Shown: in pieces, positions 10,558-64,000 of the stretch
Layout: each line of letters begins with the position of its first letter
Numbering within the stretch: the first letter of the stretch is position 1
NCBI GenBank assembly: GCA_963972255.1
Contig: CAXATO010000017.1
Location: forward strand, 2,729-66,728
Direction: 5' to 3'
DNA: 64,000 bases
Origin: an uncultured Magnetovibrio sp.
GTDB lineage: Bacteria > Pseudomonadota > Alphaproteobacteria > Rhodospirillales > Casp-alpha2
The notes under the pieces: generated by a model
Told to the model about the DNA's origin: nothing
The model's database searches: none
The model's input: the letters and a program-made list of their open reading frames with translations, nothing else
Program-made: the position numbers and the translations under genes

Positions 10558-10569
10558 GCCCGAGAACCC

Positions 10570-39757: not shown

Positions 39758-39761
39758 GGAT

Positions 39762-42516: not shown

Positions 42517-42519
42517 AAC

Positions 42520-44378: not shown

Positions 44379-44382
44379 TTGC

Positions 44383-45630: not shown

Positions 45631-45702
45631 CGGGTGACATCGACCGTCGGGAGGCGGCGTCAATCCATGTCGCCGCTCGGCAAATATTTTTAAGTCCGCG
45701 GA

Positions 45703-47197: not shown

Positions 47198-47479
47198 ATG
47201 AAGTTTATCGCAGCGACCATGATGGCGTTGGCCGTAGCAATCTGGACGGCTGATCCGGCCTGGGCCGATGATGACGAAGGGCGTTACCGCATCGTCAACA
47301 TCAAGCGCGATATCGACGCGGACAAGGGGCCGCGGACGGTCAACGGCACGATGATGATCGACAGCAAAACGGGCCGCAGTTGGGTCCTGGATGAAGAGCG
47401 GGGCCGCTGGGTGCCCGTCGGATTCCGTGCGGCCAAGTTGGGTAACGACGTCACTGTCCTTCCCGGCAGCGCGAAGTAA
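47198..47479 (+). CDS. small secreted protein (93 aa), first gene of the secretin operon
   Basis: Sec signal MKFIAATMMALAVAIWTADPAWA followed by a charged, beta-looking mature part of about 70 aa. GGGGG-type SD sequence upstream. Confidence 0.6.
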   Translation: MKFIAATMMALAVAIWTADPAWADDDEGRYRIVNIKRDIDADKGPRTVNGTMMIDSKTGRSWVLDEERGRWVPVGFRAAKLGNDVTVLPGSAK

Positions 47480-47508
47480 GTCGGCATCCAGTGCGGAGCG
47501 TATCCAAA

Positions 47509-49446
47509 ATGAATAAGAACACATTGGTTGCCGCCATGGTCGGCGTGTCCATGCTTGGCGGGTGCATGCAGATGTCCGGGGTTGAACCGCGGCTTGCCAC
47601 GGGGATTGGCGGCGCGGAATCGGCAGAGGCCAAGCCGAAAACGCACCTGAAACTGACCGAGAACGATTACGAAAAGCCCTTGTGGAAAGCGCTGGACGCC
47701 ATCCGTCGGGGGGCGCTTCCGGAAGCCAATTTCATTCTTAATCAGGCGCTCAACCTGGCGCCGACCGACTCGGACCTGCATTTCCTCAACGCCTATGTCT
47801 ACGAACTGCGCAGCCGCAGCGAAGGGGCAAGGGTGAGCGAATTGGCCCAGTCCGGGTATATCGCCGCGTTGAACAACGATCTGCGCCATTGGCCGTCGGC
47901 TTATCGGCTGGGCCTGTGGCACATGCGCCGCGGGGAACACGGCGAGGCCCTGCGCTGGCTGGGCGAGGCGGCGTTGATCAAGGATGACTCGCCTGAAATC
48001 TTCGAGGCCTTGGCCGAAGCCAGTTATCTGGATTTCGATGCCGCCGCCGCCGAGGCATTCCTGAACCGGGCCGCCGAACTGACCGGCGAGACGGTTGAGA
48101 ACGTGCGCGCCCGCGCCGTGGTCAATGCGGCCCTGAACGACCGCGAAGACGCCGACAAGTTCGTCGAAAAATATAGAGACCTTGTCTCTGAACAAGAGGC
48201 CCGGCGTCTGAGCATGCGGGTGCAGCAGTGGCAGGGATTCCACGACAATGCCCTGAAAAACGCCGCCATTCGCGGCGGCGGGCATATCCAGCAGGCGCAA
48301 TTCTTCGGCGGCAAGGCGCCGGCCGGAGCGCCGTCCAGCAAGTCCCCGGGCAGTACGTCAGGTGCGGCCACGGGGCAACAGAGTGCGGCCGAATCTGAGG
48401 AAAAGCCCGAAGAATTGAAGAAACTGCCGGGCATGCTGGTCGTCGATGCGATCATCATTCGCCAGGCCTCGTCCCTGTCCGAACGGCGGGGCGTCAATCT
48501 GATCTCCCAGCTTCAGGCGAGTTTCAGCGGTGATGTGTTCCAGTTCACCCAGGACAGTGGCACGTCGGGCAGCACCGCGACCAAACGGATTCAAAAGGCG
48601 TTCAAGATCGCCTTGGGCACCAATTCCCAAAGCTCCATTGATTACAGTCTGAACATCGCCAACAACACGGACAACCGCACCGAGGTTCTGGCCCGGCCGT
48701 CGATTACCGTGCTGGAAGGGGAGACAGGCAGCTTTTTCCTGGGGCAGGAAGTGACCTATTCCGTGGACGGTGATGGCGCGGATTCCTTCGACAAGGAAGT
48801 CGGCATTTCCTTCGAGGTGACGCCGGAAATTCTCGACGGCGGCAGGGTGCGTCTGGAAACCAAGGCCGAGTTCGATACCTTCACCACATCGACATCCAGC
48901 GTCACCTTCAACCGCGTCATCCCGACGTTGAAGAACCGCCTGAGCAGCACGGCCATCCTGTCGATCGGCCAGACCCTGGTCTTGGGGGGCGGCACGGAAG
49001 AGGAAAAATCGAAGTCGTCGGACGACGTGCCGGTTCTGGGCCGCGTGCCGCTGTTGCAGTACTTCTTCAGTTCGAAGACATCGACGACGGAAGACACCTC
49101 GCTGATCTTCCTGATCACGCCGCGCTTGGCTGAAACCCTGGACGACCGGGAAAACGTGGACGCCGCCGCCGGGGAACAAGGGGTGAAGACGGACGGCGAT
49201 ATCATGCGCCAGTTGCGTCAAAGGTTCCGAAACTGGTTCGACCCGACCAGCAATCTGACCAAGGCGTTGGTCGGTCTTTCCTATTCCGACCTTTACCGCG
49301 AGTTTCGCGCGGGCGACCTCAAGTTCTCAGACGACGATAAAGACGGTGATTTCGATCGCCTGTTGGCAAACGACGGGAACGGGTTCCTCAACACGTATGA
49401 GGACGGATTTTTCCCGGAACTGTTGCGGTACTTCTATTTCAACTGA
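47509..49446 (+). CDS. lipoprotein secretin with N-terminal TPR domain
   Basis: Lipobox MLGGC. TPR-like helical repeats at roughly residues 45-255, then a low-complexity linker. Secretin C-domain ends in GGGTEEEKSKSSDDVPVLGRVPLLQYFF...LIFLITPRL, followed by a tail of about 110 aa. Confidence 0.85.
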   Translation: MNKNTLVAAMVGVSMLGGCMQMSGVEPRLATGIGGAESAEAKPKTHLKLTENDYEKPLWKALDAIRRGALPEANFILNQALNLAPTDSDLHFLNAYVYELRSRSEGARVSELAQSGYIAALNNDLRHWPSAYRLGLWHMRRGEHGEALRWLGEAALIKDDSPEIFEALAEASYLDFDAAAAEAFLNRAAELTGETVENVRARAVVNAALNDREDADKFVEKYRDLVSEQEARRLSMRVQQWQGFHDNALKNAAIRGGGHIQQAQFFGGKAPAGAPSSKSPGSTSGAATGQQSAAESEEKPEELKKLPGMLVVDAIIIRQASSLSERRGVNLISQLQASFSGDVFQFTQDSGTSGSTATKRIQKAFKIALGTNSQSSIDYSLNIANNTDNRTEVLARPSITVLEGETGSFFLGQEVTYSVDGDGADSFDKEVGISFEVTPEILDGGRVRLETKAEFDTFTTSTSSVTFNRVIPTLKNRLSSTAILSIGQTLVLGGGTEEEKSKSSDDVPVLGRVPLLQYFFSSKTSTTEDTSLIFLITPRLAETLDDRENVDAAAGEQGVKTDGDIMRQLRQRFRNWFDPTSNLTKALVGLSYSDLYREFRAGDLKFSDDDKDGDFDRLLANDGNGFLNTYEDGFFPELLRYFYFN

Positions 49447-49469
49447 GTGGTCGGTGTAAGGATTGCGGC

Positions 49470-52400
49470 ATGCGTAACAACGCCGCGCGCAGGGACGGAC
49501 AGGTCCGGTCTCGAACACGCGCATTGACCATCGTGGCGGCATTGGGGGCGGCTGGGTTCCTGGCGGTCTTTCCGACCGATCTGTCCCAGGCGCAAACCCA
49601 GGAATCCGGTGCGCCGGCCCTTGCCGCACCCAGCGTCACGGCGCCCACGGTCGAGGCACCCAAGGTTGCGGCGCCGGATGCCGGGGCACCGTCGTCGGTT
49701 GAATCCGAACTGCAACAGGAGATCACCAAGGCGTTCAAGAAGTCCGGCCTGTTCAAGGGACTGGATCTGGACCGCCTGGGTCAGGACGGCAAGGCGCGGA
49801 CCCTTAAGTTGTCCGGCAACAAGGGCGAGCTCGAATTTTTTCATTTGCCCGAAGGGGCGCAAGACGACAACACGACGCCGTCTCCGGCCGCATCGGATCA
49901 GCAGACGCCCCCACAAACCCAGCCCGGCGTCCCCGGCGCCCCGACCCCGGCGCCCGTGGACAAGGTGGAAAGCCGGCCCTTGGATGCCCCCGCGCCGCCG
50001 TCGCCTACCGCGTCGGGGCAGGGCGATGACACGGTCAAGGGGAGTTATCATTTCCTTCACAAGCGCGAGAGCTTGCCGCTCCGGCTGTTCGCCGACGCAG
50101 CCGGCCGGTCCGGCGCCATCGATCTGGTGCTCAAGGACGCCGTGCTGATCTACAGTTCGGAAGCCCGCGAGACCCGCTTGTCCAAGCTGAGTATCCCCCC
50201 CGCGACAACGCGCTATCTGAAAAAGTTCATCACCGCCAAACGCCGTGCCATGGATCTGCCCGCGGGCGGCATGATCTTTGCCCGGCTGGTCATCCGTGAA
50301 AATTCGTTCCTGGACAATCTGGATAAGGCCCTCGACTTCAAGGAAAAGGAAGTCCTGGTGCAGGGGCACCTCAGCTATCGCATGTTCCGCCGCCTGGTCG
50401 GGCTTAGCGTGAAGCCGGCAAAGCCGGACGTCACGGATGACGACATCAAGCTGACGTTCAACCTGGAAGGATTTCGGCCGCCGAAGATCGGACGTTATGT
50501 GGACGCCGCCGATCTGGCATTGACGATCGCACCGGACAGCAACGGGCGGCTGGACATGACGGGAACGGCAGCGGCCCGGTTCGGGTTCGGCGCGCGCAAG
50601 GTCAAGGCCGCTGGGAGGCTTGATTTCGACGCCGTGTCGGGCGATGGCGAGCCCGTATTCCGCATGACCGCCAAGGCGGGCCCGCGCGACCTGCGCAACA
50701 TCAAGGTCGACGGCGCCCAGGCCAAAGAGATCGACTTTTTGTTTTCGTTGGACGATGCCTATGTGCCCAAGCTGCGGGCCGAAGGTTATGGTGAGCGTTC
50801 GGGCGAGCGAATTCCCATTGCCGGTGAATTGGACGAGGAAGACGGAAAAGATCTATTTAAGCTGGACGGCAATACCCTGGAAGCCGTCGCGGGTCTGGAC
50901 ATTCCCGGGTTCGATGAGATCAAACTTGGCAATGTACCGAAGCTGACCACGGGCCGCGCCGTGTCGGTCGATACGATCATCCGCGGGCAGCCGGCGAAGC
51001 TGGTGATCGGGCCCGTCACCAACAATGACGCGGCCTATGTGGCCTTGTCCGTCGATGGCGCCGGGATTGAGATGCTGGTGCCTAAAAGTGTCCTGGGGGA
51101 TCTGGGCCAGGTCGAGACAGGACGCGCCGTGTTCCTGTACGTGCCCAAGGGGCGGGGGCCGCCCAAACTGTCGGATCTGCCGAAGCCGTTCCGAACTCTG
51201 TTCGAGGAGTTTTTTACGGACAAGGATCTGAGCAGCGCCAAGCCGGGGATGAATCTGTTTCAGGCCTCGGGCTTCGCCGAAAAGCATCCGTTTTCCACCT
51301 TGCTGTCGCTGTTCCGTCAAGGGCGGGCGAACGAGGGCGGTATCAAGATCGTCGGCCAGATCGATCCCCTGGTGTTCGACGAACCCGATGAGTCCGCAGC
51401 CGAGGCTTGGCGCAGTGGCGATGCGCGCGGACGGCTGAAGCGCGTCCTGGCGACCCTGCGCCTGCGGGGTGAAGTGTCGGGATTGGAGGGGGTCGGTCTA
51501 AGCAACCTGTTCCGTCTTGCCGACCGGGCGGAGTTCGTCTTCGAGGGCGGATCGTCGGGCAAGGTTTCCGCAGGGTTGGATTTCGGCGGCACCTTGACGT
51601 TGCCGGGGGCCAAGGCGCCGCGCTATTTCGAATTCGCCGCCGCGGCCCGGTCCGACGGCGCATTCCGTTGGCAGGGTGACGAGGTCGATGCCCAAGGCGA
51701 GGATATTCGAGGCGGTCAGCGGGTCACCCTGACGGGAGCCATCCGCAACAAGCGTCCGGTTGACCTGAGCTTGGCACTGGCCGGTGGTTTCCGGTTGGGA
51801 GATCTGTCACGCCTCCAGGTGCCGGGTCTGGCGGATTTGGAAATTCAGGACGTCTATCTGAGCCGCAAGGTCATTTCCGGCGCCTTGGGCCAGGGCAATG
51901 CCCGGTCCACCATCACCATCGTCGATAAGCCGGATGCCCGTCTGGCCGTGATCGATGTCAGTCGCGGGGTACGCCCGGCGGCCTATCTGCCGGGATTGAA
52001 CCGCACGCCCCTGGCCGGTCTGGAGTTACCGGAGACGGCGATCCTCATTGCCGGGCCCGGCAGTGGCGTGGAGGCGATCGACAGCCTGCCGACCGCCATG
52101 GCCCAGTCCTTGAAGAAAACGCTGGAAGGCGGCAGCATCGTTCTCAAGCCGGGGATTTCGTTCCTCAGCCGTCTGTCGTTCGACGGTGACGACCCCTTGG
52201 CGCGATTGGCCCGGCGTCTCGGCGTGCCCATAACGGAGACGGCCTTTCTATCGGGCGATATTCCCGCTGCCGTGGTCAAGGCAGTTGCCGGGGGGCGGGC
52301 ACCCAAGGTCCTGGCCGGATTGTCCTTGAAGGCGCAACTGCCGCGATTGACCCTGCCGGGGCTGGAAAACCTGTTCAAGTTGTCGGACGTGACGGAACTG

Positions 52401-55400
52401 GCGCTGACCAGTGACGCGGCCGGGGCCATGGAACTGGCCCTGAAATCCGGGGGCACCTTTACCATTCCCATCGTCGGGCGTGATGAGCAGGTACAGGTCG
52501 ACGCCCGCATAACCGGGCAGGGCGCCCAGCGCATGGCCACGGTCGATATCGAGGCTGCCTCCAAACTGCACCTGACGGCGGAAGCTCCGCTTGATTTCAA
52601 GAACCTGGCCAAGGCCAAGGATTTCTCGGTTTCCATCGACAACGGCCTGACCCTGTCGGACCTACTGGGCACGGAAGTGCCCGGCATCGGCAGCCTGCGC
52701 CTGGCCGAAGCGAAATTGTCCTTGGGTCATGTCCAGGGGACCCTGGCGCTGGGCGACACGAAGTTCACGGTCAACCTCGCGGCCCTTGGTGGCGGTGGCG
52801 GCGGCGGCAACCCCCTGGCTCGGCTGATGACGATGGAGGTCTCGGACCTGCCCGGTCTGTCGGTGATTCCCGGCCTGGGGGCAACGCCACTGGCGGATGT
52901 TCGCTTGGGTGATCTTGTGTTCGCTTATCTGCCGACACTCGGCGGCGGCGGTGGGGACGGCCTGGCCCTGGACAAACTGCCGGAGGGGATCAGGCATCTG
53001 GCGGGCAGGCTGTCCGGGCCGTCGGGCGGCAGCAGGCTGCTACCCGGCCTGAACCTGGTGTCGGCCGTTGATCCCACCAAATTGGGCAAGCTGTCCGACT
53101 TGCTGACCAAACTGGGCGCCGGCGGTGGCGGCAAACCGTTCAAGCTGAAGGCGGTCATGCCGGGCGAGGCGCTTGCCTTCATCCGCGACAAACTGCCCAA
53201 GGGGAAAAGCGGTGGGTCCGGCGGGGCGGCGGCCAAGGCCAAGAAACTGGCCGGGACGGTTGTCGCCAAGATCATCCAGAAAACGGACCTCACCATTCCG
53301 GTTCCGGCGATCAAGCTGCCGGGGGTTGGTGACTATCTGTCGTCACGGGCGGCCCAGATAAAGCTGACGGGCGGCGAGGGCGCGAACGGCGCGGCGCTTA
53401 CCACGGCAATCACCGGCGCCTTCGATTTCGTCCTGCCGGGCACGCCCACGTCGGGCAACATGGATCATGAAATCACGCTCACCCTGGATGCGGGCCGCAA
53501 TCTGGCGGCGGCGGTCAACGGCACCGGGCGGCTGAACAATGTGGCGGGGCAGTTGACCCTGTCCGGATCGCTGGCCACGGGCGGGGGACGCAAGGCGGAT
53601 CTGGCGCTGGCCCTGGACGGCGAGGGATTGACGCTGGCCAATGTCATGGGCTTGAACGTGCCCGGCCTGTCGGATGTGGCACTGACCAAGGCCGCCATCC
53701 GCGCCGGGCTGGTCAGCGGTGAGATCATGGTCAAGGGCGCGACGTTCCAGGCCACGGCTTTTGATTTCGCCCGCGATAAGAAACCGGCCCTGGCCGTGGT
53801 TGCGGCAGACCTGGATGCAGCCCAGATTCTGCCCGCCTTGGCCGGCACGGCCCTGGACGCGGCGACGCTTGAACGCACGACCTTCCTGTACCTGCCCCAG
53901 GGCCGCAAGGAGACCTTGTCCGAAACCGGGTTCCCGGCAGAACTCGTCGGGCGTTTCGACCTGGCCAAGGTCGGCGACGGATTCAATGCCGAACTGATGG
54001 CGCGGCCGAAGCAAGGCGGCCAGTTGGCGGACCTGCTGGGCGGGCTGGGCATCCGCCTGACGGACCCGCTCGAGATCGAAGGCCGATTCAACGCCAATCC
54101 CTTCACGGCGTCGGGGAAGGACCTGATCGCCGCCATCGATCTGACGGCGACCCTGCCGACCCTGAGTTTCAACAAGATCGGCCCCGTGGCCATCAATTTC
54201 CCGTCGCGCCCGGTTCTCGCCCTGAAGGGAAGCGACACGGGATTGACCACGCGCGTCGATACCTCGATCCGCTTTACCCTGCCGGGACCGGGGCGCGTCT
54301 ATGAAGGCGACGGATCCTTCACCACCGAGCCGATGGAGGGGGGCAAGCGGCGGCTGACCTTCGCGGGCTCGGCCCTCGACCCGGGCGGACGAAAGGCTCT
54401 TATCGAAGCCTCGTTGCCCTTGCCGGGATCGCCGCGTGATTTCAGGCTCAAGTTCTCGGGTGAACAGACCCTGTCCAGTCTGCTCGGCGTGGACATTCCG
54501 GTGATCGGCGATCTCAACCTGAAAGAGGTCGAGCGGGACACGGATTATCTGGTCGCCAAGATCGCCTTGAAGGGCTTCGAGACCACGGTCGGCGCGTTCC
54601 GCACGGAAGGGCGCTGGGCGGTGACGCTATCCGCCGCCGGGTTGAAGCCGTCCGAATTCATTCCCGGCCTGGGATCGTCGCCCATCGCCGGCCTGACATT
54701 GCCGCAGGCCGTGTTCACCTATATCCCCGGTCAATCGGGCGATAACAAATCCTTGCGTCTGCCCTTCGATGTGGCGGCTTTGCCCGACAAGGTGAGAACC
54801 GCCGTCGGTCCCTTGCTCAGTCCCTTCGGCGGTGGCGGGTCGTCGTTCCGCCCCGGGCTCAATCTGAAAAGCTTCCTCAAACCCGGCGATCTGCCGGCCC
54901 TGAAGAAATTGTTCGCCTTCACCGGCAGCGGGGGTGGGCAGCCACTGAAACTATCGGGCGTGTTGCCGGTAGAGGTGCTGAAATCCTTGGTGTCGGGCGG
55001 CGGCGGTGGCGGTAACAGCGCCATCAAGACCCGCGCCAAAGAGGTCGTCGCAGGGCTGGTTCAAAAGGTCGACCTGGAAACCAAACTGCCGGCCGTGAAC
55101 CTGCCGGGTGTCCGTGATGTGGTCGCCTTTGACGATCCCATGCTGCGTATTCAGGGATTGTCGGAGAATGGAAAGGTCGCCCTGGTAACCCGCATCACCG
55201 GCGACATGCAGGTCACGCTGCCGGGGGTGGCGCCACTGGCCCTCGCGGGCAGCCTGCGGCTTGCGGCACGGGTGGACGGGGTCGGTCTGGATGTCGAGGG
55301 CGGCAGCGACCGTCTGCGCCTGACGGGCAGCGTCGACCTGAACAAGGCCGATCCTCGCCTGCAATTGGCGGTGGCGTCGGACATCACCGTGCAGGACCTG

Positions 55401-58400
55401 ATCGGCACGTCGGTGCCCGGGATCGGCGATCTCGCCCTGACCGATGCCCGCATCGGCTCGGAAGTGATTTCCGGCACGGTCCAGTTGCGCGGTTCCCAGA
55501 CGACTCTGGCGGTGTTCGATTTCAAGAAGGATAAGAAACCCTTCGTCGCCCTGGTGCCGGAAAGCGTGGATGCCGCCGATTTCATTCCGGGTGTGCGCGG
55601 CACGCCCTTGGACAACGCCAAGCTGACTCGGGGGGCGTTGGTCTACGTGCCCGGCGAGAAAGACGCGTATCCTGAGAACGACGCCTATCCGGACAGTGTC
55701 ACGGCGGCGCTCAAACTGGTGTCGCGCGACGGCGCGCTGCCGCCGTCCCAGGGGCTGCGCGCGGGCTTCATTGTCGAACCCAAGGCCGAGAGCCCCCTGG
55801 CCAAGGCCCTGGCCTTTGTCGGGGTCAAGGAGGACACCCTGGAAGTCGCCGGCGTACTGCCGTCGATTGTACTGGCATCCCGGCCGGGCGGCACCGGCCG
55901 AGGGTTGAGCGGCGATGCCTTGAAACAGGCCGTCGCCGCGGTCGATCTGGAAGCCCGCCTGCCGGCCATCAATCTGCCCGGCATCGACAAGGTGCTGACC
56001 CTCGGCGCACCGTCTTTCCTGATCAAGGGGACGCCGGTCACCGATATCAAGGGGCAATCGACGGGCGAGGTCAGGCTGCGCGTCGGCATGGCCGGTGACC
56101 TGGTCCTCAACCTGCCGGGACATGCCTTGGCCTTCGATGGTGGCATCGACATCGAAAAGACCACGGGCGGCAAGGCGTTCCGGCTGGCCGTGCGGTCGAC
56201 TTCCACCGTCAACTGGGACAAGGCCTTCGGACTGCCGTTTCTGGGGCTGAACAATCTGGCCCTGAGCGGCGCAATCGAGCGCACGGCGGAGGGCCGGGCG
56301 CTGTTGGATGCATCGCTTTCGACCATGGCGCGGCTCGACAAGCAGGAATTCGAGGCCGTCAGTTCTCTGACCCTCAAGTCCAATGCCGCCCCGGAACTGC
56401 GGTTCACGATCCCCGGCAAGATCGACGTCGCCAAACTGCCGCTGATCGGCGGGCTCAAGGGCATCAACGAGCTGAGTTTCGCCAATCTGTGGATCGGCAC
56501 CGGCGGCCTGGGGGGCAAGGTGCGCATCGACAAGCTGGGCATCGGCGGCGAGGGGGCGATCTTCCTGCACGGCGGCAAGCCCATTGCCCTGGTCAAGGCC
56601 GATCCGTTCAAGATCACCGACCTAGTCGGGAACTCGGGCCCGGCCAGCAAGTTCAAGCAGGTGTTGGAAGGGGCGGCCCAGATCTCCCTGCCTGAATCGG
56701 TGTTCGCCATTTCCACGGCGGACCTGTCGAACGTTCCCGTCGGGGACCTGCCGGCGGGCCTGCTGTCCATGGTCGAGGGACTGATGCCGAAATCGGGTGG
56801 CGACAAACGCACCCTGCCGTTCGGAGCCGGGGTGTCCTTGATCGCGGCCCTGTCGGAAGAAAACCTGCCGTCGGCGGTCCGCCAGGTCGCGACCCGCGAC
56901 GTCAACATCTTCAAGGCCGTGGACGGGCCGCTGTTGCTGGCCGGTAGCCTGAAGGGGGTGTTCGACGGCAACCTGGAAGCGCGCCTGGACGCGCGCCTGC
57001 CCAATTTCAAGCTGCCCGAGGGCCAGCCATGGCGTCAGTTGGTATCCATCGACAGTGTCGGTGCCGAAGGCTTCCTGTTCGTCGACGTGCCGAAGCTGCA
57101 GATGGGCCTTGGCGTCAACGGTAACATCACCCTGGACGTGCCGCGCCTGAGCACGCCGAGCAAGTCCGACAAGCTGAAGTTTGGCGGTGACCTGTATACG
57201 TCGTTCGACGCCGTGTCCTGGGCCGGCAGTTTCAAGCTGGCCGCCAACATGAAAGGCGATTGGCATCAGCCGTTCGGCATTTCCAAGAATCATACCTTCC
57301 GCAACCCGGCGATCCTGATCGGATTTGATTCCGAAGGCAGCGTCGAATTCGGTGTTGGGGCTTCGGCGATCGTGACCGGTTTGGGCCGCAAACAGGACCG
57401 CACGGTGACGGCGGATGCGGATTTCCTGGTCAACATCAACTTCTCGACCTCCATCCCGCTGCCGAAAAAACTGGCTGTCGCCTACAAGGTCAAAGGCGAG
57501 CTGAGCCAATGGACGTCGCTGGAAATGATGGAGGCCAACTTCAAGGGTGTCCTGGGCGGGCCGATGGCCAATGAGGTTCTCAAGGTCCTGCCCGACAAGA
57601 AATCCCGCGACGCCGCCAAGTACCTCCAAACGGAAATCCTCAAACGCAGCATTTTCGACATCATCCGCGTGGATGAACTGCCCCTGCCGACCTTGAGCGT
57701 CGTCGATCCGGTCATCTTCTTTGCCACGCCGGGGGCCAAGATTCCCGGGCGTGACGATACGCTGGATACCATGGGCGTGCGCGTCGGCGGCGGCGCTTAT
57801 ATGTCCTTGTTCGGGAACAAGAAGCGCCTGGGCGGGACAGACCTGCGTCTGACCTTGTCGGACGGCCTGATCTTGAAAGGCGATCTTGCCGACATCACCT
57901 TGCCGCCGATTCTCAAGGTCCAGAATGCCAAAGTCGACATCGTCGCCAACATCAAGCAACTGCCCCATTTCAAGGTATCGGGGAACACCGATTTCCTGGG
58001 CGCCAAGGAAAACATCGATATCGAGTTTTCCAAGGACCGCATCCATTTCGAACTGGAACGGGATTTGGGCCGAGTGATCAAGACCCGGTTCTTGGCGCAA
58101 ACAGACAGCGGCGATGTGTTGGGCGCGCGCGAATTCCTGGTCGAGGCCGATACCAAGACGGAAATCGACAAGCTGATCTCGGACGAAGTCTTCCCTCGGA
58201 TGGGCATTCCGAAGGTCGTGTTCGACGCCATCAAGTCGTCGACTCCGATCTTCATCCATGGCGCCAAGTTCCGCGGCAAACTGGTGGACTTTCTCAAGGG
58301 CGGCGAGGTGACGCTGGAGGTCGATCACAGCTTCTTCGGCACGCGTATGAAGGAACCGGCCGTGGCCAAGGTCAAGCCGGCCTGGGCGTCGGCCAACCCG

Positions 58401-61400
58401 GTTGAGGTTCTGCCCGCCGCCGCCATCGGCGCCGCCATGGGGAAAAGCTTCTTTGCCTATCTGATCGATCACCCCTTCACGTTGGGCAAGATCAACTTGG
58501 GGCTGGTGTCGTTGGAAAGCGCCAGCCTGAGTGCGGAACGGGATACGTCGAGCCGTTTCAAGATCACCGGCAAGCTCAATGCCCTGGGGCTCCCGTTCTC
58601 GCAAACCACGGCCTACCTCGACAACAAATCGGGACTGACGCTCGATTCCAAATCCGAGATCAATGTCGGTTTGCCGCTCGGCGTGCTGGGAAATCTGGCG
58701 CGCAGCGAAACCACGTTGCACTACGAACTGAACCCGTCCGGGCTCAGCCATCAGATCAAGCTCGACATGTCGACGGCAGCGCTGGGTTTCAAGGACTCGA
58801 TCCATTTCAACCTGGACGGCGACCTGACGGAAACCAACGTCTCGTTCCGCTCGACCCATCCTTGCGCGCGCTTTTCCTCGCAGACCACCATGGGGGCAGG
58901 GGACATCCGCAACCTTGCGCTCAAGGTCAATCAGGGAACGGCCCAACCCATCGACTTTGTCCAGGCCGTCAAGTTTCAGCCGAAGATCTCCCTGCCGTCG
59001 CCCAAGGACGCTTTGCAATGCGGCAGCCGCGTTGCCGGTATGGCGGCGGCGGCGGTCGACGTGGCGGCCCAGGGCCTGCGCGATGTGGCGAACGCGGCCA
59101 ACGTGGTGGTCGGCGCCGTTGGCAAGTTCGCCGGCGACATCATCAATAAGCTGCAGCAACTGGATTGCAAATTGCTGCGCCTGGGCGATTGCCCGCGGCC
59201 ATCTGACTGCCGGGGCAGCGAACGGTGGAACGACAGCCTCAAGCGCTGCTGGATTCCGGATAATTTCCTGCTGCGTCATTATTCCATTGCGAACCGCGAT
59301 AAAGGCTGGTGCGCCGACATCCGAGGGGCAAGGGACCAGGCAGGCGTGGATCTGATCCCCTGGGGCTGCCACGGCAAATGGAATCAAAGCTGGCGGTTCT
59401 ACGGTGATGGATACCTGCGAAACGTGAAAGGCGGCTGCATGGGCGCCCGCCGGTATCATGAAGGCGGTGTCGTGACCTTGGAATCCTGCAATTCGCGGGA
59501 AGTTCTGAAGATGGAATTCCTGACAACGGGGCAGATCATCGCGCACCGCAAGGATGGAAGCGGCGGGGCCTGCTTGGCCATCAACCGGGGAAAGATCGTC
59601 CTATGGGGATGCGGGCGCATCGGCGACAAGCATACGGATCTTTGGCTGCCCTTTGACCCGTTCAAGGGCCGCGTGGTCAATCCGGCGCTCGACCGGGAAT
59701 CCAAGGCCCTGGAAGCTGCTTTCAAGACGCCGATCAGCAACGATCCGCCGGTGCCGTTCATGCGCTATTGGAAGCGCAGCACGAATGAGTACTACCATAC
59801 CGCCGACCCGGAACAGTTCGGCAAGGGGCGCGACGGCTGGGCCTATGACGGCAAGGTCGGCATGATCTTCGCCAAGCGGGCCCCTGGAACCGTGCCTCTG
59901 TTCCGTTTCTGGCGAACGGCGCGGAAGGGGCAGAACCACGTCTACACGACCGACCCCAACCCCTACCGAGGCGGTCAGCGCGGCTTCAGTTTCGATGGTG
60001 TGGCGGGATACGTCTACAATCGTGACATCCCCAACACGGTGCCGTTCTTCCGCTATCACGAAAGCAATAACACCAACTACTTCTACACCGGCGACATCAA
60101 CCAACTGGGACGTAATCCAAGAGGGCCCTGGCGTTTCGAGGGAACCGCCGGCTACCTGCCCAAGGAAGAGCCGCCGCTGACACCGCCGGTGGAACCATCG
60201 AACCCGGTGCCCCTCGCGTTCGACAAAAATATCCAGGTCTTTCCAAAACCGGCCGAAGGCACGATGCCGCTATACTTGTACGGTCGCATCGAGAACCGTC
60301 GCCGTCAGGCACCCAATATCCTGTCGGGCGACTTCAAAGAATATGGCTACGGTTCGCCGGAAATCTATTTTGCGGGCATTGCCGGATATGTGTTCCCCGA
60401 CAAGCGCCCGGGCACGCTGCCGATCATCCAGCGCCGTTACGGCAAGAATATCGGGCTGGGGTATTATCCGGGACCAGACTACGGCCCGGGCAAGGATGCC
60501 AAGATCGTGCGTGTCGATCCCGTGCCCTTGCTGCGTTATTTCAATCCCAAGGCCAACGACCATCTGTACACCGCCGACCCGGCGCAGCTGGGTGACGGCC
60601 GCGACGGCTATATACGCGACGGCGTCGCCGGCGCCATCTTCCCGGGGCGGGTTCAGGGCACGGTGCCGCTTTACCGTTACTGGAACGGGGCCAAGCAGGA
60701 CCACATCTTCACCACCGATTTCCAGGAATTGTGGTACGGCAAGGACGGTTACGAGTACGTCGCCGTGGAAGGCTATGTCTATCCCAAGGAACAGAAGGGC
60801 AGCCGGGCGCTCCACCGCTACCGCAACGGGGCGAGCAACGACAATCTGCTGACCACGGACATCGACGAGTTCGGTGGAAAGAAGGGCGCCAAGGGCTTCA
60901 GTTACGTCAAGGTCGAGGGCTGGGTTCCCGCCGTCACGCCGCCGGGAGCCAAGGACCGGGTAGTCAAGTCCGAGCCTGAGATGATGTTGCGCTATCACCA
61001 TCCGGGCACCGGCGATCACGTGATCGCCCTCGGGTTCGGGGAAATGGGCGAGGGGGCGGACGGCTATGTCCTGGACAAACCCCTGGGCATGATCTTCAGC
61101 AAAAAGGCCAAGGATACGGTGCCGCTGTACCGCTATTTCCACGCGGCCAATAACGACACCTATTACACGACGAAGTTCGACGGTCTGGCCTGGGGCAAGG
61201 ACGGATGGACCTATCAAGGGATCGCCGGCTGGATCTATGACAAACAGCGGCCGGGCACGGTGGCGCTGCGCCTTTATCATTCGTCCGCCAATCGGGAACA
61301 TATGCTGGCGCGGGACGGAGATGCCAAGCCCGGGTATACGGCACAGTCCGTCGTCGGTTGGGTTCCGGAATTCCAGGCCCCCGGTGCCGACACGCCGGTG

Positions 61401-64000
61401 GTGCAATCCACGCCGGTGATCCTGGCCCGCTACGTCAACGCCAAGACCCGTGACAATCGCCTGACTGCCGGGGACAAGGAATTCGGCCGGGGGGCGGGCG
61501 GCTATGTGCCCGACCGCTACCTGGGGCACATCTGGCCGACGCGCGCCAAGGGCACGGTGCCGCTCTACCGTTATTTCAGCGCATCCAGGAACGACACCTA
61601 CGTGGCGACCGATTTTTCGGAACGTTGGTACGGGACCGACGGCTACGTTTATGAAGGCATCCTGGGCTACGTCCAGGCCAAGGAAGCACCGGGGACGGTC
61701 GCCCTTCATCGCTATGTCAACGAGGCCACGGGCGACACGCGGGTCACCACCGACTTCGCCGAACTCGACGGAAAGCGGGGCCGCGACGGCTATCGTTATC
61801 AGGGGGTCATCGGCTGGGTGAAACCGTTCACCCCACCGGGGCTGGACCAGCCGGAAAAAGCATCGAAGCCGGTGCCCTTCGTGCGCTACCGCGACAGGAA
61901 GTCCGGTGCCTACGTGCAAGTCGCGGGGGCCGAAACCTATGGGGCCGGCAAGGGCGACTTGGCGATCGAGCAGGCCCAGGGCCGCATCTTCAAGACCCGC
62001 GCACCCGGGACGGTGCCGCTCTACGAATACGGCCGGGGCAAAAGCCACGTGCGCCGCTATACCACCGATTTCCGCGATCTGCTGTTCGGTCGCGACGGAT
62101 TCGACTATCTGGGCCTGGCCGGTTTCGTCTATCCCGACGCCCGGCCCGGGACGGTGCCGTTATATCGGTTCGACACCCGCGACAACGGCGGCCATGTCCT
62201 GACCGTCGACAAGGGGGCATTCGCGGGCAAGAGCGGCTATGCGGGCGGCGGGATCATCGCCCATGTTCCGGCCTACGACGAGACGCCGTCACCGGCCTTC
62301 CGTAACCTTTATGTTGCAACCAACCGGAACTTCAGCTGCCTCAACGCCCAGGCTCAGGACGGCGGCGAACTCGACTCGCGCCTGTGCGCCGACGACGGCA
62401 ACATGCGGTTCACCTTCTGGTCCGACGGCACCCTGCGCCACGATCCCAAGGATTTGTGTCTGGGTACAAACAGCCAAAGCGGCAATGCGGCCGATGTGGG
62501 GACCTATACCTGCGATTATTCACCGGGCCAGCAATGGGATGTCCGCTGGAGCGGCAAGAAACCGTCGCGCCCGGACCCGGCGGCCCGTTTCCAGCTGGTT
62601 CACCGGCAGAGCGGAAAATGCCTGGGGTTGGCCGACGACAGCGCCCGTGACGAGGTCGAGGCCGTTCTTGTGAAATGCGCCGCCGAGGGCAAGGCAGGAG
62701 TTCAGTTCTGGAGCGCAGGTCAAGAGATCCCCGCTTATGTCCTGCCGGGCACGGACGCGCCGGTGCGGCCGTCGGACCCGGAACTGCTGGTGCGCTATGT
62801 CAATCCCAAGGCCAAGGGGGGAGATCATCGCTTGGTGCTGGGGCTGGACGAACTGGGCCGGGGCAAGGACGGCTTCTTGCCCGACGTCGTCATGGGCCGC
62901 GTATATTCGACGCGCGCGGCAACCGATCTGGTGCCGCTCTACCGCTATGTCGCGGCCAAGGACGGCGATCATATGTACACCGCCGATTTCCACGAATTGC
63001 GGTTCGCCACGGGCGGCTATCGGTTCGACGGTGTGCTGGGCTATGTCCAGGCGGCCAAGGGACCGGGATTGCTGCCTCTGCACCGCTACTTCAATAAATC
63101 CCGCCACGATCATCTGGTAACCACGGACGGGGACGAACTGGACGGCGCCAACGGCAAGAACGGGTATCGCTACGAAGGCGTCGCCGCCTATACCCCGGGT
63201 ACCGGCGCGGAGGTCCGCAAAGGCTGGGCCAAGGTTCACTTGGCCAACCGGGACGGCATGGTGTGCTTGACCCGGGACGGAGGCGGCAGTCTGTCGTCCC
63301 GCCGCTGCGAGGACGAGGGGGATCAGCCCCTGGCGTTCTGGACCGACGGCACGCTGCGTGACCTGAGCGGCGGCAAGTGCATGACGACCGATCGGGCGGG
63401 CACCGCACCGCCGGAAATGGCGGCCTGCGACAACAGTCTGGCCCAGCGCTGGACGCCGGAGTGGCAGGGCGGCAAAGCACCGGGACAGCCCGACGGGCGC
63501 ACCGCGATGCGGCTGTCCCATTGGCTGTCCGGGACGTGTGTGACACTGGCCGACGGATCGGGCCGCGACGGCGTGGCCGCCGTGATGGCGCCCTGCGGCA
63601 AGTTCGCCAAGGACGACCGCCGCGGCACCTGGTGGGCTCATGGCGGCGTGCCCACGTTCACCGCGCCGGGGGCGGACGCGCCGATGGTAAAAGCCGACCC
63701 CCAGCCGCTGATCCGATATGTCAGCGCCAAATCGAAAAGCGGCGACCATCGCCTGACCGTGGGGCCGGACGCCCTGGGTCTGGGGCGGGATGGCTATGCC
63801 ATGGAAACGGCGCAGGGTTACGCCTGGGCCGGACGGGCGACGGGCACGGCACCCCTGTACCAGTATCACCACAAGGCCACGGGCGATCATTTCTGGACCC
63901 CCGATTTCCGCGAACTGGGATACGGCGCGTCGGGTTACGCCTATCAAGGGGTCGCCGGGTATCTGCATGCGGACAAGCAGCCGGGGACGGTGGCGCTCCA
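49470..64000 (+). CDS. giant secreted repeat protein (>4,843 aa, 3' end beyond window): signal peptide, at least 7 novel modules of about 300 aa, at least 3 ricin-type beta-trefoils, and over 20 repeats of the YR.Y..DH.YT type
   Basis: Not in the ORF track. ATG 49470 is preceded by AAGGA at 7 nt. I translated frame 3 by eye to position 64000 without meeting a stop. The track reports no other + strand frame-3 ORF in this interval. Strong GC3 bias and protein-like repeats are conserved at the amino-acid level. Confidence 0.85.
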   Translation, partial: MRNNAARRDGQVRSRTRALTIVAALGAAGFLAVFPTDLSQAQTQESGAPALAAPSVTAPTVEAPKVAAPDAGAPSSVESELQQEITKAFKKSGLFKGLDLDRLGQDGKARTLKLSGNKGELEFFHLPEGAQDDNTTPSPAASDQQTPPQTQPGVPGAPTPAPVDKVESRPLDAPAPPSPTASGQGDDTVKGSYHFLHKRESLPLRLFADAAGRSGAIDLVLKDAVLIYSSEARETRLSKLSIPPATTRYLKKFITAKRRAMDLPAGGMIFARLVIRENSFLDNLDKALDFKEKEVLVQGHLSYRMFRRLVGLSVKPAKPDVTDDDIKLTFNLEGFRPPKIGRYVDAADLALTIAPDSNGRLDMTGTAAARFGFGARKVKAAGRLDFDAVSGDGEPVFRMTAKAGPRDLRNIKVDGAQAKEIDFLFSLDDAYVPKLRAEGYGERSGERIPIAGELDEEDGKDLFKLDGNTLEAVAGLDIPGFDEIKLGNVPKLTTGRAVSVDTIIRGQPAKLVIGPVTNNDAAYVALSVDGAGIEMLVPKSVLGDLGQVETGRAVFLYVPKGRGPPKLSDLPKPFRTLFEEFFTDKDLSSAKPGMNLFQASGFAEKHPFSTLLSLFRQGRANEGGIKIVGQIDPLVFDEPDESAAEAWRSGDARGRLKRVLATLRLRGEVSGLEGVGLSNLFRLADRAEFVFEGGSSGKVSAGLDFGGTLTLPGAKAPRYFEFAAAARSDGAFRWQGDEVDAQGEDIRGGQRVTLTGAIRNKRPVDLSLALAGGFRLGDLSRLQVPGLADLEIQDVYLSRKVISGALGQGNARSTITIVDKPDARLAVIDVSRGVRPAAYLPGLNRTPLAGLELPETAILIAGPGSGVEAIDSLPTAMAQSLKKTLEGGSIVLKPGISFLSRLSFDGDDPLARLARRLGVPITETAFLSGDIPAAVVKAVAGGRAPKVLAGLSLKAQLPRLTLPGLENLFKLSDVTELALTSDAAGAMELALKSGGTFTIPIVGRDEQVQVDARITGQGAQRMATVDIEAASKLHLTAEAPLDFKNLAKAKDFSVSIDNGLTLSDLLGTEVPGIGSLRLAEAKLSLGHVQGTLALGDTKFTVNLAALGGGGGGGNPLARLMTMEVSDLPGLSVIPGLGATPLADVRLGDLVFAYLPTLGGGGGDGLALDKLPEGIRHLAGRLSGPSGGSRLLPGLNLVSAVDPTKLGKLSDLLTKLGAGGGGKPFKLKAVMPGEALAFIRDKLPKGKSGGSGGAAAKAKKLAGTVVAKIIQKTDLTIPVPAIKLPGVGDYLSSRAAQIKLTGGEGANGAALTTAITGAFDFVLPGTPTSGNMDHEITLTLDAGRNLAAAVNGTGRLNNVAGQLTLSGSLATGGGRKADLALALDGEGLTLANVMGLNVPGLSDVALTKAAIRAGLVSGEIMVKGATFQATAFDFARDKKPALAVVAADLDAAQILPALAGTALDAATLERTTFLYLPQGRKETLSETGFPAELVGRFDLAKVGDGFNAELMARPKQGGQLADLLGGLGIRLTDPLEIEGRFNANPFTASGKDLIAAIDLTATLPTLSFNKIGPVAINFPSRPVLALKGSDTGLTTRVDTSIRFTLPGPGRVYEGDGSFTTEPMEGGKRRLTFAGSALDPGGRKALIEASLPLPGSPRDFRLKFSGEQTLSSLLGVDIPVIGDLNLKEVERDTDYLVAKIALKGFETTVGAFRTEGRWAVTLSAAGLKPSEFIPGLGSSPIAGLTLPQAVFTYIPGQSGDNKSLRLPFDVAALPDKVRTAVGPLLSPFGGGGSSFRPGLNLKSFLKPGDLPALKKLFAFTGSGGGQPLKLSGVLPVEVLKSLVSGGGGGGNSAIKTRAKEVVAGLVQKVDLETKLPAVNLPGVRDVVAFDDPMLRIQGLSENGKVALVTRITGDMQVTLPGVAPLALAGSLRLAARVDGVGLDVEGGSDRLRLTGSVDLNKADPRLQLAVASDITVQDLIGTSVPGIGDLALTDARIGSEVISGTVQLRGSQTTLAVFDFKKDKKPFVALVPESVDAADFIPGVRGTPLDNAKLTRGALVYVPGEKDAYPENDAYPDSVTAALKLVSRDGALPPSQGLRAGFIVEPKAESPLAKALAFVGVKEDTLEVAGVLPSIVLASRPGGTGRGLSGDALKQAVAAVDLEARLPAINLPGIDKVLTLGAPSFLIKGTPVTDIKGQSTGEVRLRVGMAGDLVLNLPGHALAFDGGIDIEKTTGGKAFRLAVRSTSTVNWDKAFGLPFLGLNNLALSGAIERTAEGRALLDASLSTMARLDKQEFEAVSSLTLKSNAAPELRFTIPGKIDVAKLPLIGGLKGINELSFANLWIGTGGLGGKVRIDKLGIGGEGAIFLHGGKPIALVKADPFKITDLVGNSGPASKFKQVLEGAAQISLPESVFAISTADLSNVPVGDLPAGLLSMVEGLMPKSGGDKRTLPFGAGVSLIAALSEENLPSAVRQVATRDVNIFKAVDGPLLLAGSLKGVFDGNLEARLDARLPNFKLPEGQPWRQLVSIDSVGAEGFLFVDVPKLQMGLGVNGNITLDVPRLSTPSKSDKLKFGGDLYTSFDAVSWAGSFKLAANMKGDWHQPFGISKNHTFRNPAILIGFDSEGSVEFGVGASAIVTGLGRKQDRTVTADADFLVNINFSTSIPLPKKLAVAYKVKGELSQWTSLEMMEANFKGVLGGPMANEVLKVLPDKKSRDAAKYLQTEILKRSIFDIIRVDELPLPTLSVVDPVIFFATPGAKIPGRDDTLDTMGVRVGGGAYMSLFGNKKRLGGTDLRLTLSDGLILKGDLADITLPPILKVQNAKVDIVANIKQLPHFKVSGNTDFLGAKENIDIEFSKDRIHFELERDLGRVIKTRFLAQTDSGDVLGAREFLVEADTKTEIDKLISDEVFPRMGIPKVVFDAIKSSTPIFIHGAKFRGKLVDFLKGGEVTLEVDHSFFGTRMKEPAVAKVKPAWASANPVEVLPAAAIGAAMGKSFFAYLIDHPFTLGKINLGLVSLESASLSAERDTSSRFKITGKLNALGLPFSQTTAYLDNKSGLTLDSKSEINVGLPLGVLGNLARSETTLHYELNPSGLSHQIKLDMSTAALGFKDSIHFNLDGDLTETNVSFRSTHPCARFSSQTTMGAGDIRNLALKVNQGTAQPIDFVQAVKFQPKISLPSPKDALQCGSRVAGMAAAAVDVAAQGLRDVANAANVVVGAVGKFAGDIINKLQQLDCKLLRLGDCPRPSDCRGSERWNDSLKRCWIPDNFLLRHYSIANRDKGWCADIRGARDQAGVDLIPWGCHGKWNQSWRFYGDGYLRNVKGGCMGARRYHEGGVVTLESCNSREVLKMEFLTTGQIIAHRKDGSGGACLAINRGKIVLWGCGRIGDKHTDLWLPFDPFKGRVVNPALDRESKALEAAFKTPISNDPPVPFMRYWKRSTNEYYHTADPEQFGKGRDGWAYDGKVGMIFAKRAPGTVPLFRFWRTARKGQNHVYTTDPNPYRGGQRGFSFDGVAGYVYNRDIPNTVPFFRYHESNNTNYFYTGDINQLGRNPRGPWRFEGTAGYLPKEEPPLTPPVEPSNPVPLAFDKNIQVFPKPAEGTMPLYLYGRIENRRRQAPNILSGDFKEYGYGSPEIYFAGIAGYVFPDKRPGTLPIIQRRYGKNIGLGYYPGPDYGPGKDAKIVRVDPVPLLRYFNPKANDHLYTADPAQLGDGRDGYIRDGVAGAIFPGRVQGTVPLYRYWNGAKQDHIFTTDFQELWYGKDGYEYVAVEGYVYPKEQKGSRALHRYRNGASNDNLLTTDIDEFGGKKGAKGFSYVKVEGWVPAVTPPGAKDRVVKSEPEMMLRYHHPGTGDHVIALGFGEMGEGADGYVLDKPLGMIFSKKAKDTVPLYRYFHAANNDTYYTTKFDGLAWGKDGWTYQGIAGWIYDKQRPGTVALRLYHSSANREHMLARDGDAKPGYTAQSVVGWVPEFQAPGADTPVVQSTPVILARYVNAKTRDNRLTAGDKEFGRGAGGYVPDRYLGHIWPTRAKGTVPLYRYFSASRNDTYVATDFSERWYGTDGYVYEGILGYVQAKEAPGTVALHRYVNEATGDTRVTTDFAELDGKRGRDGYRYQGVIGWVKPFTPPGLDQPEKASKPVPFVRYRDRKSGAYVQVAGAETYGAGKGDLAIEQAQGRIFKTRAPGTVPLYEYGRGKSHVRRYTTDFRDLLFGRDGFDYLGLAGFVYPDARPGTVPLYRFDTRDNGGHVLTVDKGAFAGKSGYAGGGIIAHVPAYDETPSPAFRNLYVATNRNFSCLNAQAQDGGELDSRLCADDGNMRFTFWSDGTLRHDPKDLCLGTNSQSGNAADVGTYTCDYSPGQQWDVRWSGKKPSRPDPAARFQLVHRQSGKCLGLADDSARDEVEAVLVKCAAEGKAGVQFWSAGQEIPAYVLPGTDAPVRPSDPELLVRYVNPKAKGGDHRLVLGLDELGRGKDGFLPDVVMGRVYSTRAATDLVPLYRYVAAKDGDHMYTADFHELRFATGGYRFDGVLGYVQAAKGPGLLPLHRYFNKSRHDHLVTTDGDELDGANGKNGYRYEGVAAYTPGTGAEVRKGWAKVHLANRDGMVCLTRDGGGSLSSRRCEDEGDQPLAFWTDGTLRDLSGGKCMTTDRAGTAPPEMAACDNSLAQRWTPEWQGGKAPGQPDGRTAMRLSHWLSGTCVTLADGSGRDGVAAVMAPCGKFAKDDRRGTWWAHGGVPTFTAPGADAPMVKADPQPLIRYVSAKSKSGDHRLTVGPDALGLGRDGYAMETAQGYAWAGRATGTAPLYQYHHKATGDHFWTPDFRELGYGASGYAYQGVAGYLHADKQPGTVAL
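50880..57130 (+). repeat. at least 7 tandem, diverged protein-coding modules of about 280-330 aa inside the giant ORF (approximate bounds)
   Basis: Anchor motif (D/N)(I/V)PG(I/L/F)(G/S/A)(D/S)L.L recurs at 50901, 51819, 52677, 53658, 54495, 55413 and 56233, a spacing of 820-981 nt. Conserved downstream blocks include FDF.(K/R)DKKP..A.V and L.A.LPAINLPG. Poly-Gly runs occur, for example at 52787-52807 and 54996-55013. Confidence 0.65.
59277..64000 (+). repeat. lectin-type repeat region of the giant ORF: ricin-type beta-trefoils (about 59277-59660, 62298-62727, 63222-63648) alternating with arrays of 45-50 aa repeats
   Basis: Trefoil regions carry paired Cys and Q.W-type motifs (NQSWRF, QQWDV, AQRWTP). 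The repeats have consensus TVPLYRY....(N/G)DH.YTTDF.EL..G.DGY.YEG..GYV. I counted about 23 units. Confidence 0.7.

Follow-up and report, generated by a model that had tools for sequence, protein, structure and literature searches.

To our knowledge, every characterized secretin forms the outer-membrane terminus of a machine that spans the envelope. The N0-N2 domains of secretins couple the channel to inner-membrane partners, and a pilus, needle, or phage opens the gate. In the tight adherence (Tad) system, the lipidated, PilF-like tetratricopeptide-repeat (TPR) protein TadD binds the last four residues of the secretin RcpA, and this contact is essential for secretin assembly (PMC10499894). The small Sec-exported protein BfpG is reported to pair with the lipoprotein secretin BfpB (PMC12531336), and SiiE is described as a giant adhesin of a type I secretion system (T1SS; PMC6272769). 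Here, we analyze a 64,000-nucleotide stretch (the window) of contig CAXATO010000017.1 from an uncultured Magnetovibrio sp. (Rhodospirillales), in which the gene for a lipoprotein secretin lies between genes for a 93-aa Sec-signal protein and a giant lectin-array protein. Across genomes, the secretin gene is linked to genes for giant binding-repeat proteins and has no such link to type IV filament, type III secretion system (T3SS), phage, or T1SS genes. The locus is a real and apparently undescribed cargo-linked secretin module; searches of the open-access literature turned up no account of a secretin with a fused TPR domain that pairs with giant lectin proteins, an absence that is no proof of novelty.

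A lipoprotein secretin linked to giant binding-repeat proteins

Three co-directional genes on the + strand, separated by spacers of 29 nt and 23 nt, encode the 93-aa protein (47198-47479), the 645-aa secretin (47509-49446), and the giant protein (49470-64000; 4,843 codons in the window), with an AraC-family regulator gene lying divergently on the opposite strand. A Shine-Dalgarno-like purine-rich stretch (GGGGG, GGAG, or AAGGA) precedes each of the three genes, and all three products carry predicted Sec-type signals. Listing of open reading frames (ORFs) and their translation bear out the layout given in an initial annotation of this DNA, including its description of the first gene as encoding a 93-aa Sec-signal protein (the predicted signal peptide ends in AWA, before DDD) and of the third as a frame that is open from ATG 49470 to the end of the window and begins with a signal-peptide-like segment.

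The second gene most plausibly starts at ATG 47509 and stops at 49446, and its product begins MNKNTLVAAMVGVSMLGGC. In agreement with its annotation as a lipoprotein with a secretin C-domain, the protein has a lipobox (LGGC) and matches the Pfam Secretin family (PF00263) over aa 385-540 with 118.9 bits compared to a cut-off of 27.5. A homology search of 5.8 billion clustered proteins recovered ~19 full-length members of the family, and Cys19, the site of the predicted lipid anchor that is characteristic of liposecretins, is invariant in an alignment of 19 members. The signal peptide and lipobox are followed by a TPR superhelix (aa ~50-254), a disordered Ser/Gly/Ala-rich linker (255-305), an N3-like element with the secretin core (~306-540), and a conserved C-terminal tail (545-645). 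This tail of ~100 residues (LYREFRxGD...[LF][LIV]Y[FHY]) has an aromatic end, reads ...LRYFYF or ...FLYF at the terminus of family members, and is retained even at ~30% identity.

The TPR assignment of the initial annotation stands on structure prediction and not on Pfam, in which TPR matches remain below the cut-off (E ~1e-3). An AlphaFold2 (AF2) model based on 19 family members contains a confident helical-repeat domain at aa 50-254 (pLDDT about 75-90), which Foldseek matched to TPR proteins; for the N-terminal half, the best match among natural proteins was PilF, a pilotin of type IV pili (E 6e-7; target TM 0.65). After aa 254, the model continues with a disordered linker, one N3-like element, and then secretin sheets, and the C-terminal half matched every secretin class, with GspD, InvG, PilQ, RcpA, pIV, and BfpB at about E 1e-10 to 1e-15.

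We compared the protein with models of the described secretin classes. NCBIfam scores were 86.4 bits for GspD (TIGR02517; cut-off 351), 83.3 bits for PilQ (TIGR02515; cut-off 284), 68 bits for MshL (cut-off 250), and 58.7 bits for SctC (TIGR02516; cut-off 238), with HofQ also far below its cut-off, and every one of these models matched the C-terminal core alone. When the N3 and secretin region was searched against PDB sequences, RcpA scored best (4e-18, 68.6 bits), followed by PilQ (66.2) and GspD (~64). Pfam detected only Secretin and weak TPR matches in the window's secretin, with no Secretin_N (PF03958), PF21305, STN, GspD-N0, or CpaC-N domain, and detected no N0-N1-N2/Secretin_N domains in family members P0001-P0017 and P0019. 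Genuine GspD and PilQ proteins at the tail of the homology search (P0022-P0033) carry N-domains, and the CpaC-type N-terminal domain PF13629 occurs in none of the family but is present in P0021, which lies outside it. The protein thus lacks the score, the N0-N1-N2 domains, and the gsp-operon location of a GspD of a type II secretion system (T2SS); gsp genes were sought within ±10 kb in L001-L006, L011, L012, and L037-L039 (loci are designated here by L numbers). Like the GspD score, those for PilQ and SctC are below cut-off; there is no STN or Secretin_N domain and there are no pilM-P or T3SS genes in the contexts read. For RcpA/CpaC, the CpaC-type/VirB9-like N-domain is missing and no tad genes lie nearby, and pIV is only a distant structural match, with no phage genes in the window or related loci. 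The protein is therefore a member of the secretin superfamily that fails the tested features of GspD, PilQ, RcpA/CpaC, SctC, and pIV, and it is most simply read as a fusion of pilotin and secretin in which the N-domains that dock to the platform have been lost.

The initial annotation proposed asking whether orthologous secretins co-occur with giant ORFs across genomes. They do so in at least five arrangements and at identities down to ~30%, and the linkage of secretin and giant protein thus extends well past one operon. The closest relative of the secretin is found in bacterium SCSIO 12827 (97% identity; L001), Thalassospira proteins are 42-43% identical, and others come from marine metagenome bins. 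The order AraC, small gene, secretin, giant gene recurs in L001, L002, L038, L039, and L013-15, the giant gene encoding 5,831-6,172 aa in those loci for which its end is recorded. The flanks of this block differ among loci; the four-gene block therefore moves as a unit. Thalassospira-type loci (L003/4, L011) have the order giant gene (~4,100 aa, Ricin plus F5/8C), 110-aa gene, ATP-binding cassette (ABC) pair, 93-aa gene, secretin, and AraC, with unrelated genes after AraC; the ABC pair consists of an ATPase and a 456-aa membrane protein and is oppositely oriented. In L019, L020, L021, and L031, a secretin of ~30% identity is divergent to a protein of ~3,900 aa that shares the conserved core of the giant protein. 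In L005/6, the protein next to the secretin has 1,588 aa, contains DUF5648-like repeats, and weakly matches the repeat motif of the giant protein, and in L037, the most divergent member, an ORF of at least 946 aa with Tectonin repeats begins 10 nt after the secretin. The L012 contig ends at the secretin and gives no information on pairing. In every informative context read, the secretin lies beside a very large Sec-dependent binding-repeat protein.

No T2SS, type IV pilus (T4P), Tad, T3SS, phage, or T1SS gene was found within the ~10-kb flanks of the family contexts read. The initial annotation had named secretins consistently embedded in T2SS, T4P, or Tad clusters as evidence against a separate system; none of the orthologues is so embedded within ±10 kb. 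It had also reported no partner genes in the 47 kb upstream, and a Pfam scan of the 36 plausible ORFs there confirmed this, with ABC transporters, regulators, RecG, Mfd, DsbA, a major facilitator superfamily transporter, a peptidase, TauD, and similar proteins, and no GspE/F, pilin, PilM-P, CpaE/F, T3SS, or phage gene. For the sequence that follows the giant gene, where ATPase or platform genes might have been expected, we read three relatives (L009, L014, and L015), and no such genes lie immediately downstream in any of them. L009 has genes for a P450, an AMP-binding/PP/aminotransferase protein, and a short-chain dehydrogenase/reductase at this place; L015 has a P450-like ORF; and L014, a relative with 86% identity, has a tyrosine recombinase/integrase-like ORF (L014:20858-22111) directly downstream, the ORFs of L014 and L015 being named from translation. 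Because this integrase-like ORF stands where L009 and L015 have the P450, the 3' end of the giant gene hints at a genomic-island boundary.

Pentapeptide-repeat proteins lie near family secretins at L012:8272-9054, L031:16915-17814, and L020:22049-22459, which may be coincidence; a pentapeptide-repeat protein was reported to co-purify with PilQ slime nozzles in a cyanobacterium (PMC12475490).

The giant protein and its family

The giant ORF has coding-type composition (GC content at third codon positions 0.80), and P0035, a 5,805-aa protein in a public representative library, is 100% identical to it over aa 1-4843. The ORF is therefore a real gene that should end ~2.9 kb past the window (near 66887). 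All of its features lie on the + strand. Its signal peptide (aa 1-42; 49470-49595), with predicted cleavage between SQA and QT, is followed by Pro/Ala-rich linkers and an N-terminal segment conserved in the family. Fragment BLAST, iterated hidden Markov model (HMM) searches, and alignment delimit six tandem repeats of ~295 aa (aa 537-2248; 51078-56213) that are mutually 23-39% identical, with a partial seventh copy upstream at ~aa 434-489. Shorter relatives have 0-2 copies of this repeat, and its profile matched no PDB sequence. The repeats lead into a β-rich core of 854 aa (aa 2247-3100; 56208-58769), a Cys-containing junction, and a C-terminal lectin array (59253-64000) that continues past the window.

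The lectin-repeat character claimed for this protein is borne out. Pfam matched DUF5648 (297 bits) and Ricin_B (107 bits) and nothing else, all past aa ~3262. An internal HMM resolved eight DUF5648 modules interleaved with Ricin-B β-trefoils, three stretches of which match Pfam Ricin_B (the first at aa 3262-3400), and the array also matches Ricin-type lectins in the PDB.

The core defines a family of 92 cluster representatives (E<1e-3) among 1.84 billion proteins, with lengths of 1,200-6,165 aa and, in general, N-terminal signal peptides. The giant protein belongs to this family, having the core, ~295-aa repeats before it, and variable binding modules after it. No Pfam, NCBIfam, or PDB relative and no curated family was found for the core, and its sequence profile likewise matched no PDB sequence. 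An AF2 model from 43 sequences (pLDDT 84.3, pTM 0.66) is mostly antiparallel β with long hairpins. Foldseek returned nothing significant for this model (best PDB match E 9e-3, TM 0.17; BFVD TM ~0.1), and a fold assignment was dropped, the echoes of the ApoB100 belt, LptD, and VDAC being insignificant and no evidence. The modules C-terminal to the core vary among family members (Ricin in 14/21, F5/8C in 5/21, Tectonin in 3/21, and Hemopexin in 2/21) and also include a CDtoxinA-type lectin and PPC domains.

To read past the end of the window, a genome scan with the last 500 aa found two contigs of metagenome-assembled genomes (L007 and L008) that break inside the repeats and one informative relative (L009). 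Both P0035 and the L009 homologue end in Ricin-type domains, with no GGxGxD/RTX repeats and no other sorting motif. Dependence on a C-terminal T1SS signal and an ABC/HlyD/TolC system, raised in the initial annotation as a competing route, thus fails on sequence, given the Sec signal, the Ricin-type C-terminus, and the missing RTX repeats. The protein also does not qualify as a type V secretion system substrate, since Pfam detects only DUF5648 and Ricin in it and no Omp85/ShlB gene lies nearby.

A metagenome scan with the core alignment yielded 24 loci. With a family HMM able to detect other secretin types, a secretin was found only in L013-15, L019-21, and L031 of the 24. Secretin-linked core proteins, which come from three clades, have at least 3,890 aa, compared to 2,850 aa at most for secretin-less ones. 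A dedicated secretin could have been recruited for the largest cargo versions, with the reservations that the clades are few and non-independent and that a secretin is possibly encoded elsewhere in the other genomes. Core-family genes occur in tandem at L027:635-16180 (2,362 and 2,779 aa), and two copies lie on single contigs in Ga0315338_1000170 (L018, L030) and Ga0315338_1000031 (L025, L033); the family is therefore multi-copy in some genomes.

Two further kinds of gene recur beside the core family and are frequent beside its shorter members. A DrrA/GldA-type ABC ATPase (~320 aa) and a polytopic membrane protein of ~456 aa with no known family adjoin core-family genes in nine loci (sites include L003:6957-9286, L011, L018:15841-18194, L020, L022, L024, L031, and L035). 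Directly after the giant-family gene, eight loci encode a small, highly conserved secreted protein that has two cysteines (...SPEEVKICQETIKEMTGGKPP..VKLC..GKLNEAIEKAMAG) and likewise belongs to no known family (sites include L010:4253-4477, L018:15595-15822, L022, L024, L028, L033, and L035, with a related 110-aa form in L003/L011). We considered the ABC-2 pair and the two-Cys protein as the missing machinery and rejected them, having found no specific orthologue in the window, L001, L002, L009, or L010.

Regulator, small gene, and surroundings of the module

The regulator gene (45864-46913, - strand) encodes Pfam AraC_binding_2 and HTH_18 domains. Its start is likely ATG 46913, giving 349 aa as called for the L001 orthologue, and the longest mechanical ORF reaches 47183. 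An AraC protein of the same type adjoins the module in 10 loci. The divergent intergenic region of 284 nt between regulator and operon contains an inverted repeat, TTTGAGACGCTCAGTCAAA (47058-47076), which occurs once in the 64-kb window. The TTTGAGACGCTCAGTCAAA block is invariant among the window, L001, L013, and L014; the repeat is also kept in L015, and its 17-nt form TTGAGA-N7-TCAA is retained in L002, L038, and L039. Conservation of the repeat thus reaches down to loci with a secretin ~58% identical to that of the window, and the repeat is a plausible candidate operator for the regulator. Scans for promoters and terminators gave nothing beyond the expectation from shuffled controls, with no hairpin in either of the two spacers, and an Rfam scan of the promoter and operon region gave a single sub-threshold chance match.

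The 93-aa protein, with a mature form of ~70 aa, matched no Pfam or NCBIfam family. Orthologues lie directly upstream of the secretin in L001, L002, L003/4, L011, and L013-15 (HMM E 1e-33 to 1e-51). The same position is taken by a 90-aa ORF in L039 and a 148-aa ORF in L038, for which we do not assert homology. By analogy, the 93-aa protein is a candidate periplasmic accessory of the secretin.

Several other features of the window lie upstream of the module. At 3-5291, co-directional genes encode an ABC protein with membrane and ATPase domains, an 834-aa ABC ATPase protein, and an HlyD_3 membrane-fusion protein, a cluster resembling a T1SS-like or peptide exporter that lies 44 kb from the giant gene and was left unmentioned in the initial annotation. 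Type I export of the giant protein through this cluster was rejected in view of that 44-kb distance, the Sec signal, the missing RTX repeats, and the fact that the cluster is not found near relatives. RecG (-) and Mfd/TRCF (+) are divergent at 8128-14073, and their longest mechanical ORFs overlap by ~600 nt; the true starts must therefore lie further in. A second AraC_binding_2/HTH_18 regulator (17578-18561) is directly followed by a gene for an 895-aa protein (18562-21249) that has Cys-rich CPxGxxRT repeats, a Tectonin lectin domain at its C-terminus, and a segment that is either a signal or an anchor. In a BLASTP comparison, this protein showed no similarity to the giant protein, and the pair (17578-21249) may be part of the same lectin regulon. 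Genes for LysR, TauD, and a second branched-chain-type ABC transporter occupy ~38850-45700, between the first ABC system and the AraC gene; the SCSIO 12827 relative (L001) has no such segment at the corresponding position, indicating an indel of ~6.9 kb.

Proposed export of the giant protein and comparison with described systems

The explanation that we favor, with our confidence evenly poised, is that AraC controls a module of three genes whose secretin is self-sufficient and serves a single cargo, the adjacent giant lectin-array protein. In such a module, the secretin would pilot itself and assemble through its lipid anchor and fused TPR domain. The groove of the TPR domain may bind the C-terminal tail of the secretin, much as TadD binds the end of RcpA, and the 93-aa periplasmic protein would stabilize the secretin ring, as BfpG does for BfpB. 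The giant protein would cross the inner membrane by Sec, and its small β domains, arranged as beads on a string, would then thread through the secretin, driven by extracellular folding or ligand binding and not by a pseudopilus piston. The lectin array would end outside the cell, and the N-terminal repeats and core would be released or retained at the channel as a stalk or plug; if retained, the N-terminal part would hold the protein in the channel, as in T1SS adhesins. The giant protein may be exported, surface-displayed, or anchored. Its role is likely glycan-directed adhesion to particles, algae, or other cells, or possibly that of a lectin-targeted toxin. "Secretin-only" export, as suggested in the initial annotation, is plausible. 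A more far-reaching claim, that the TPR-lipoprotein secretin is a complete standalone outer-membrane translocon for one Sec-dependent giant protein, with no filament machinery, ATPase, or pseudopilus, is one we put forward tentatively and rate well short of an even chance. Such a translocon would have the 93-aa partner in some lineages and appears to have been recruited for cargo of ~3,900 aa and above.

Several observations weigh against a self-sufficient, dedicated channel. Gene neighborhood shows coupling and not transport, and no energy source or gate-opening element is evident at the locus. The 93-aa gene was not detected by HMM in L019-21, L031, L005, or L037, and confidence in the AF2 model of the secretin monomer is low everywhere except in the TPR domain. 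At least 10 core-family loci (L018, L022, L024-28, L030, L033, and L035) have no secretin in the visible flanks, which extend several kb on at least one side of the core-family gene; a linked secretin is therefore no general requirement of the cargo family.

These shorter homologues must use another route, possibly a general T2SS, which would fit a rival explanation: the orphan, cargo-linked secretin plugs into the inner-membrane platform and pseudopilus of a T2SS, T4P, or Tad system whose genes lie elsewhere in the genome, with the giant protein as an unusually large substrate. This arrangement would also agree with the general experience that characterized secretins work with an inner-membrane machine and with the about equal similarity of the secretin core to RcpA, PilQ, and GspD, and our machinery comparison covers locus flanks and not whole genomes. 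We nevertheless consider it unlikely, because the secretin has no N0, Secretin_N, STN, or CpaC-type domain, the parts that contact GspC, PilP, or the platform; because more than 10 independent contexts contain no machinery gene within ±10 kb; and because the strict synteny is with the cargo and not with a machine, unlike that of known accessory secretins.

Other explanations assign a different product or function to the locus. The giant protein might be a lectin-targeted toxin released through the secretin, with the core as a membrane-inserting or delivery module and the ABC-2 pair and two-Cys protein of its relatives providing self-protection. The long antiparallel β hairpins of the core, whose weak fold echoes are only of the ApoB100 belt, LptD, and VDAC, would fit such a module, as would the recurrence of the DrrA/GldA-type ATPase with its 456-aa membrane protein and of the two-Cys protein beside the family; receptor-binding C-termini that vary among Ricin, F5/8C, Tectonin, Hemopexin, and CDtoxinA-type modules are typical of polymorphic toxins. 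However, searches of Pfam, NCBIfam, and the PDB show no toxin, enzyme, or pore-forming domain, the Foldseek matches are insignificant (TM at most 0.17), and the window has neither the ABC pair nor the two-Cys protein, close relatives also having no conserved partner after the giant gene; we judge the toxin explanation improbable. More doubtful still, and in our view very improbable, is that the secretin exports another product, such as an exopolymer, while the lectin-array protein is a co-regulated matrix or adhesion partner with another route to the surface. This explanation would fit polysaccharide exporters (BcsC, PgaA, AlgK/AlgE), which are built from a TPR domain and an outer-membrane channel. 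In addition, slime secretion in cyanobacteria and myxobacteria needs secretins (PMC12475490), the neighboring protein is built of carbohydrate-binding modules, and pentapeptide-repeat proteins occur near the family secretins of L012, L020, and L031. Against this stand the neighborhoods read, which hold no glycosyltransferase, synthase, Wzx/Wzy, or polysaccharide ABC-exporter gene and in which the giant protein is the sole constant neighbor.

If a secretin does work alone with its giant cargo, as in the module that we favor, gate opening and directionality would be possible without a piston, and it would become clearer how lectin-array proteins of 400-650 kDa reach the surface of marine Rhodospirillales. 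The analysis also brings to attention a giant-protein family of ~92 clusters whose conserved core has no relative among solved structures. Because Thalassospira strains, which we take to be culturable, carry the module, the question should be open to direct tests.

Among described systems, the RcpA/TadD pair of the Pseudomonas aeruginosa Tad system (PDB 8odn) resembles this locus in combining a lipidated PilF-like TPR protein with a secretin that has a conserved C-terminal tail, and RcpA is, only marginally, the best PDB sequence match. Here, however, the pilotin-like domain and the secretin are fused in one polypeptide, there is no VirB9-like/CpaC-type N-domain, no CpaE/F, TadB/C, or Flp pilin genes lie nearby, and in place of a pilus locus, a giant lectin protein is the neighbor. 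HxcQ, from the Hxc T2SS of P. aeruginosa, and BfpB/TcpC share the N-terminal lipid anchor on the secretin itself, and with it the principle of self-piloting, and BfpB/BfpG and TcpC/TcpQ also share a small Sec-exported protein encoded beside the lipoprotein secretin. These secretins differ in sitting in complete T2SS or type IVb pilus operons and in having platform N-domains, neither of which applies to the window's secretin, and the 93-aa protein, unlike BfpG/TcpQ, resembles no detectable family. GspD with T2SS exoproteins, for example lectin-bearing toxins, is similar in sending Sec-dependent cargo out through a secretin, as would happen here, and in its secretin core fold (Foldseek E 1e-13), whereas the present locus lacks both N0-N2 domains and neighboring gsp genes and has one dedicated cargo, which is 5,805 aa long.

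Two other kinds of system are comparable in design. LapA/LapE and SiiE are an analogy only, in that a repeat protein of several thousand residues with distal binding modules, possibly retained in the pore, is encoded beside a dedicated outer-membrane conduit; here the protein carries a Sec signal at its N-terminus and neither RTX repeats nor a T1SS signal at its C-terminus, ABC/membrane-fusion protein/TolC genes are missing beside it, and the channel is a secretin and not of the TolC type. BcsC, PgaA, and AlgK/AlgE also join a periplasmic TPR scaffold to an outer-membrane channel for a very long polymer, and slime nozzles also depend on a secretin. Here, however, a secretin takes the place of the 16-18-stranded porin, genes for polysaccharide synthesis are missing from the surroundings, and the constant neighbor is a protein. 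Compared to all of these systems, a fused pilotin-like TPR lipoprotein domain stands in place of the N-domains, and the secretin gene travels with a single giant cargo and not with a machine; if this secretin works alone, it would constitute a new way of secreting proteins that differs from those of T2SS, T4P, Tad, T3SS, and phages.

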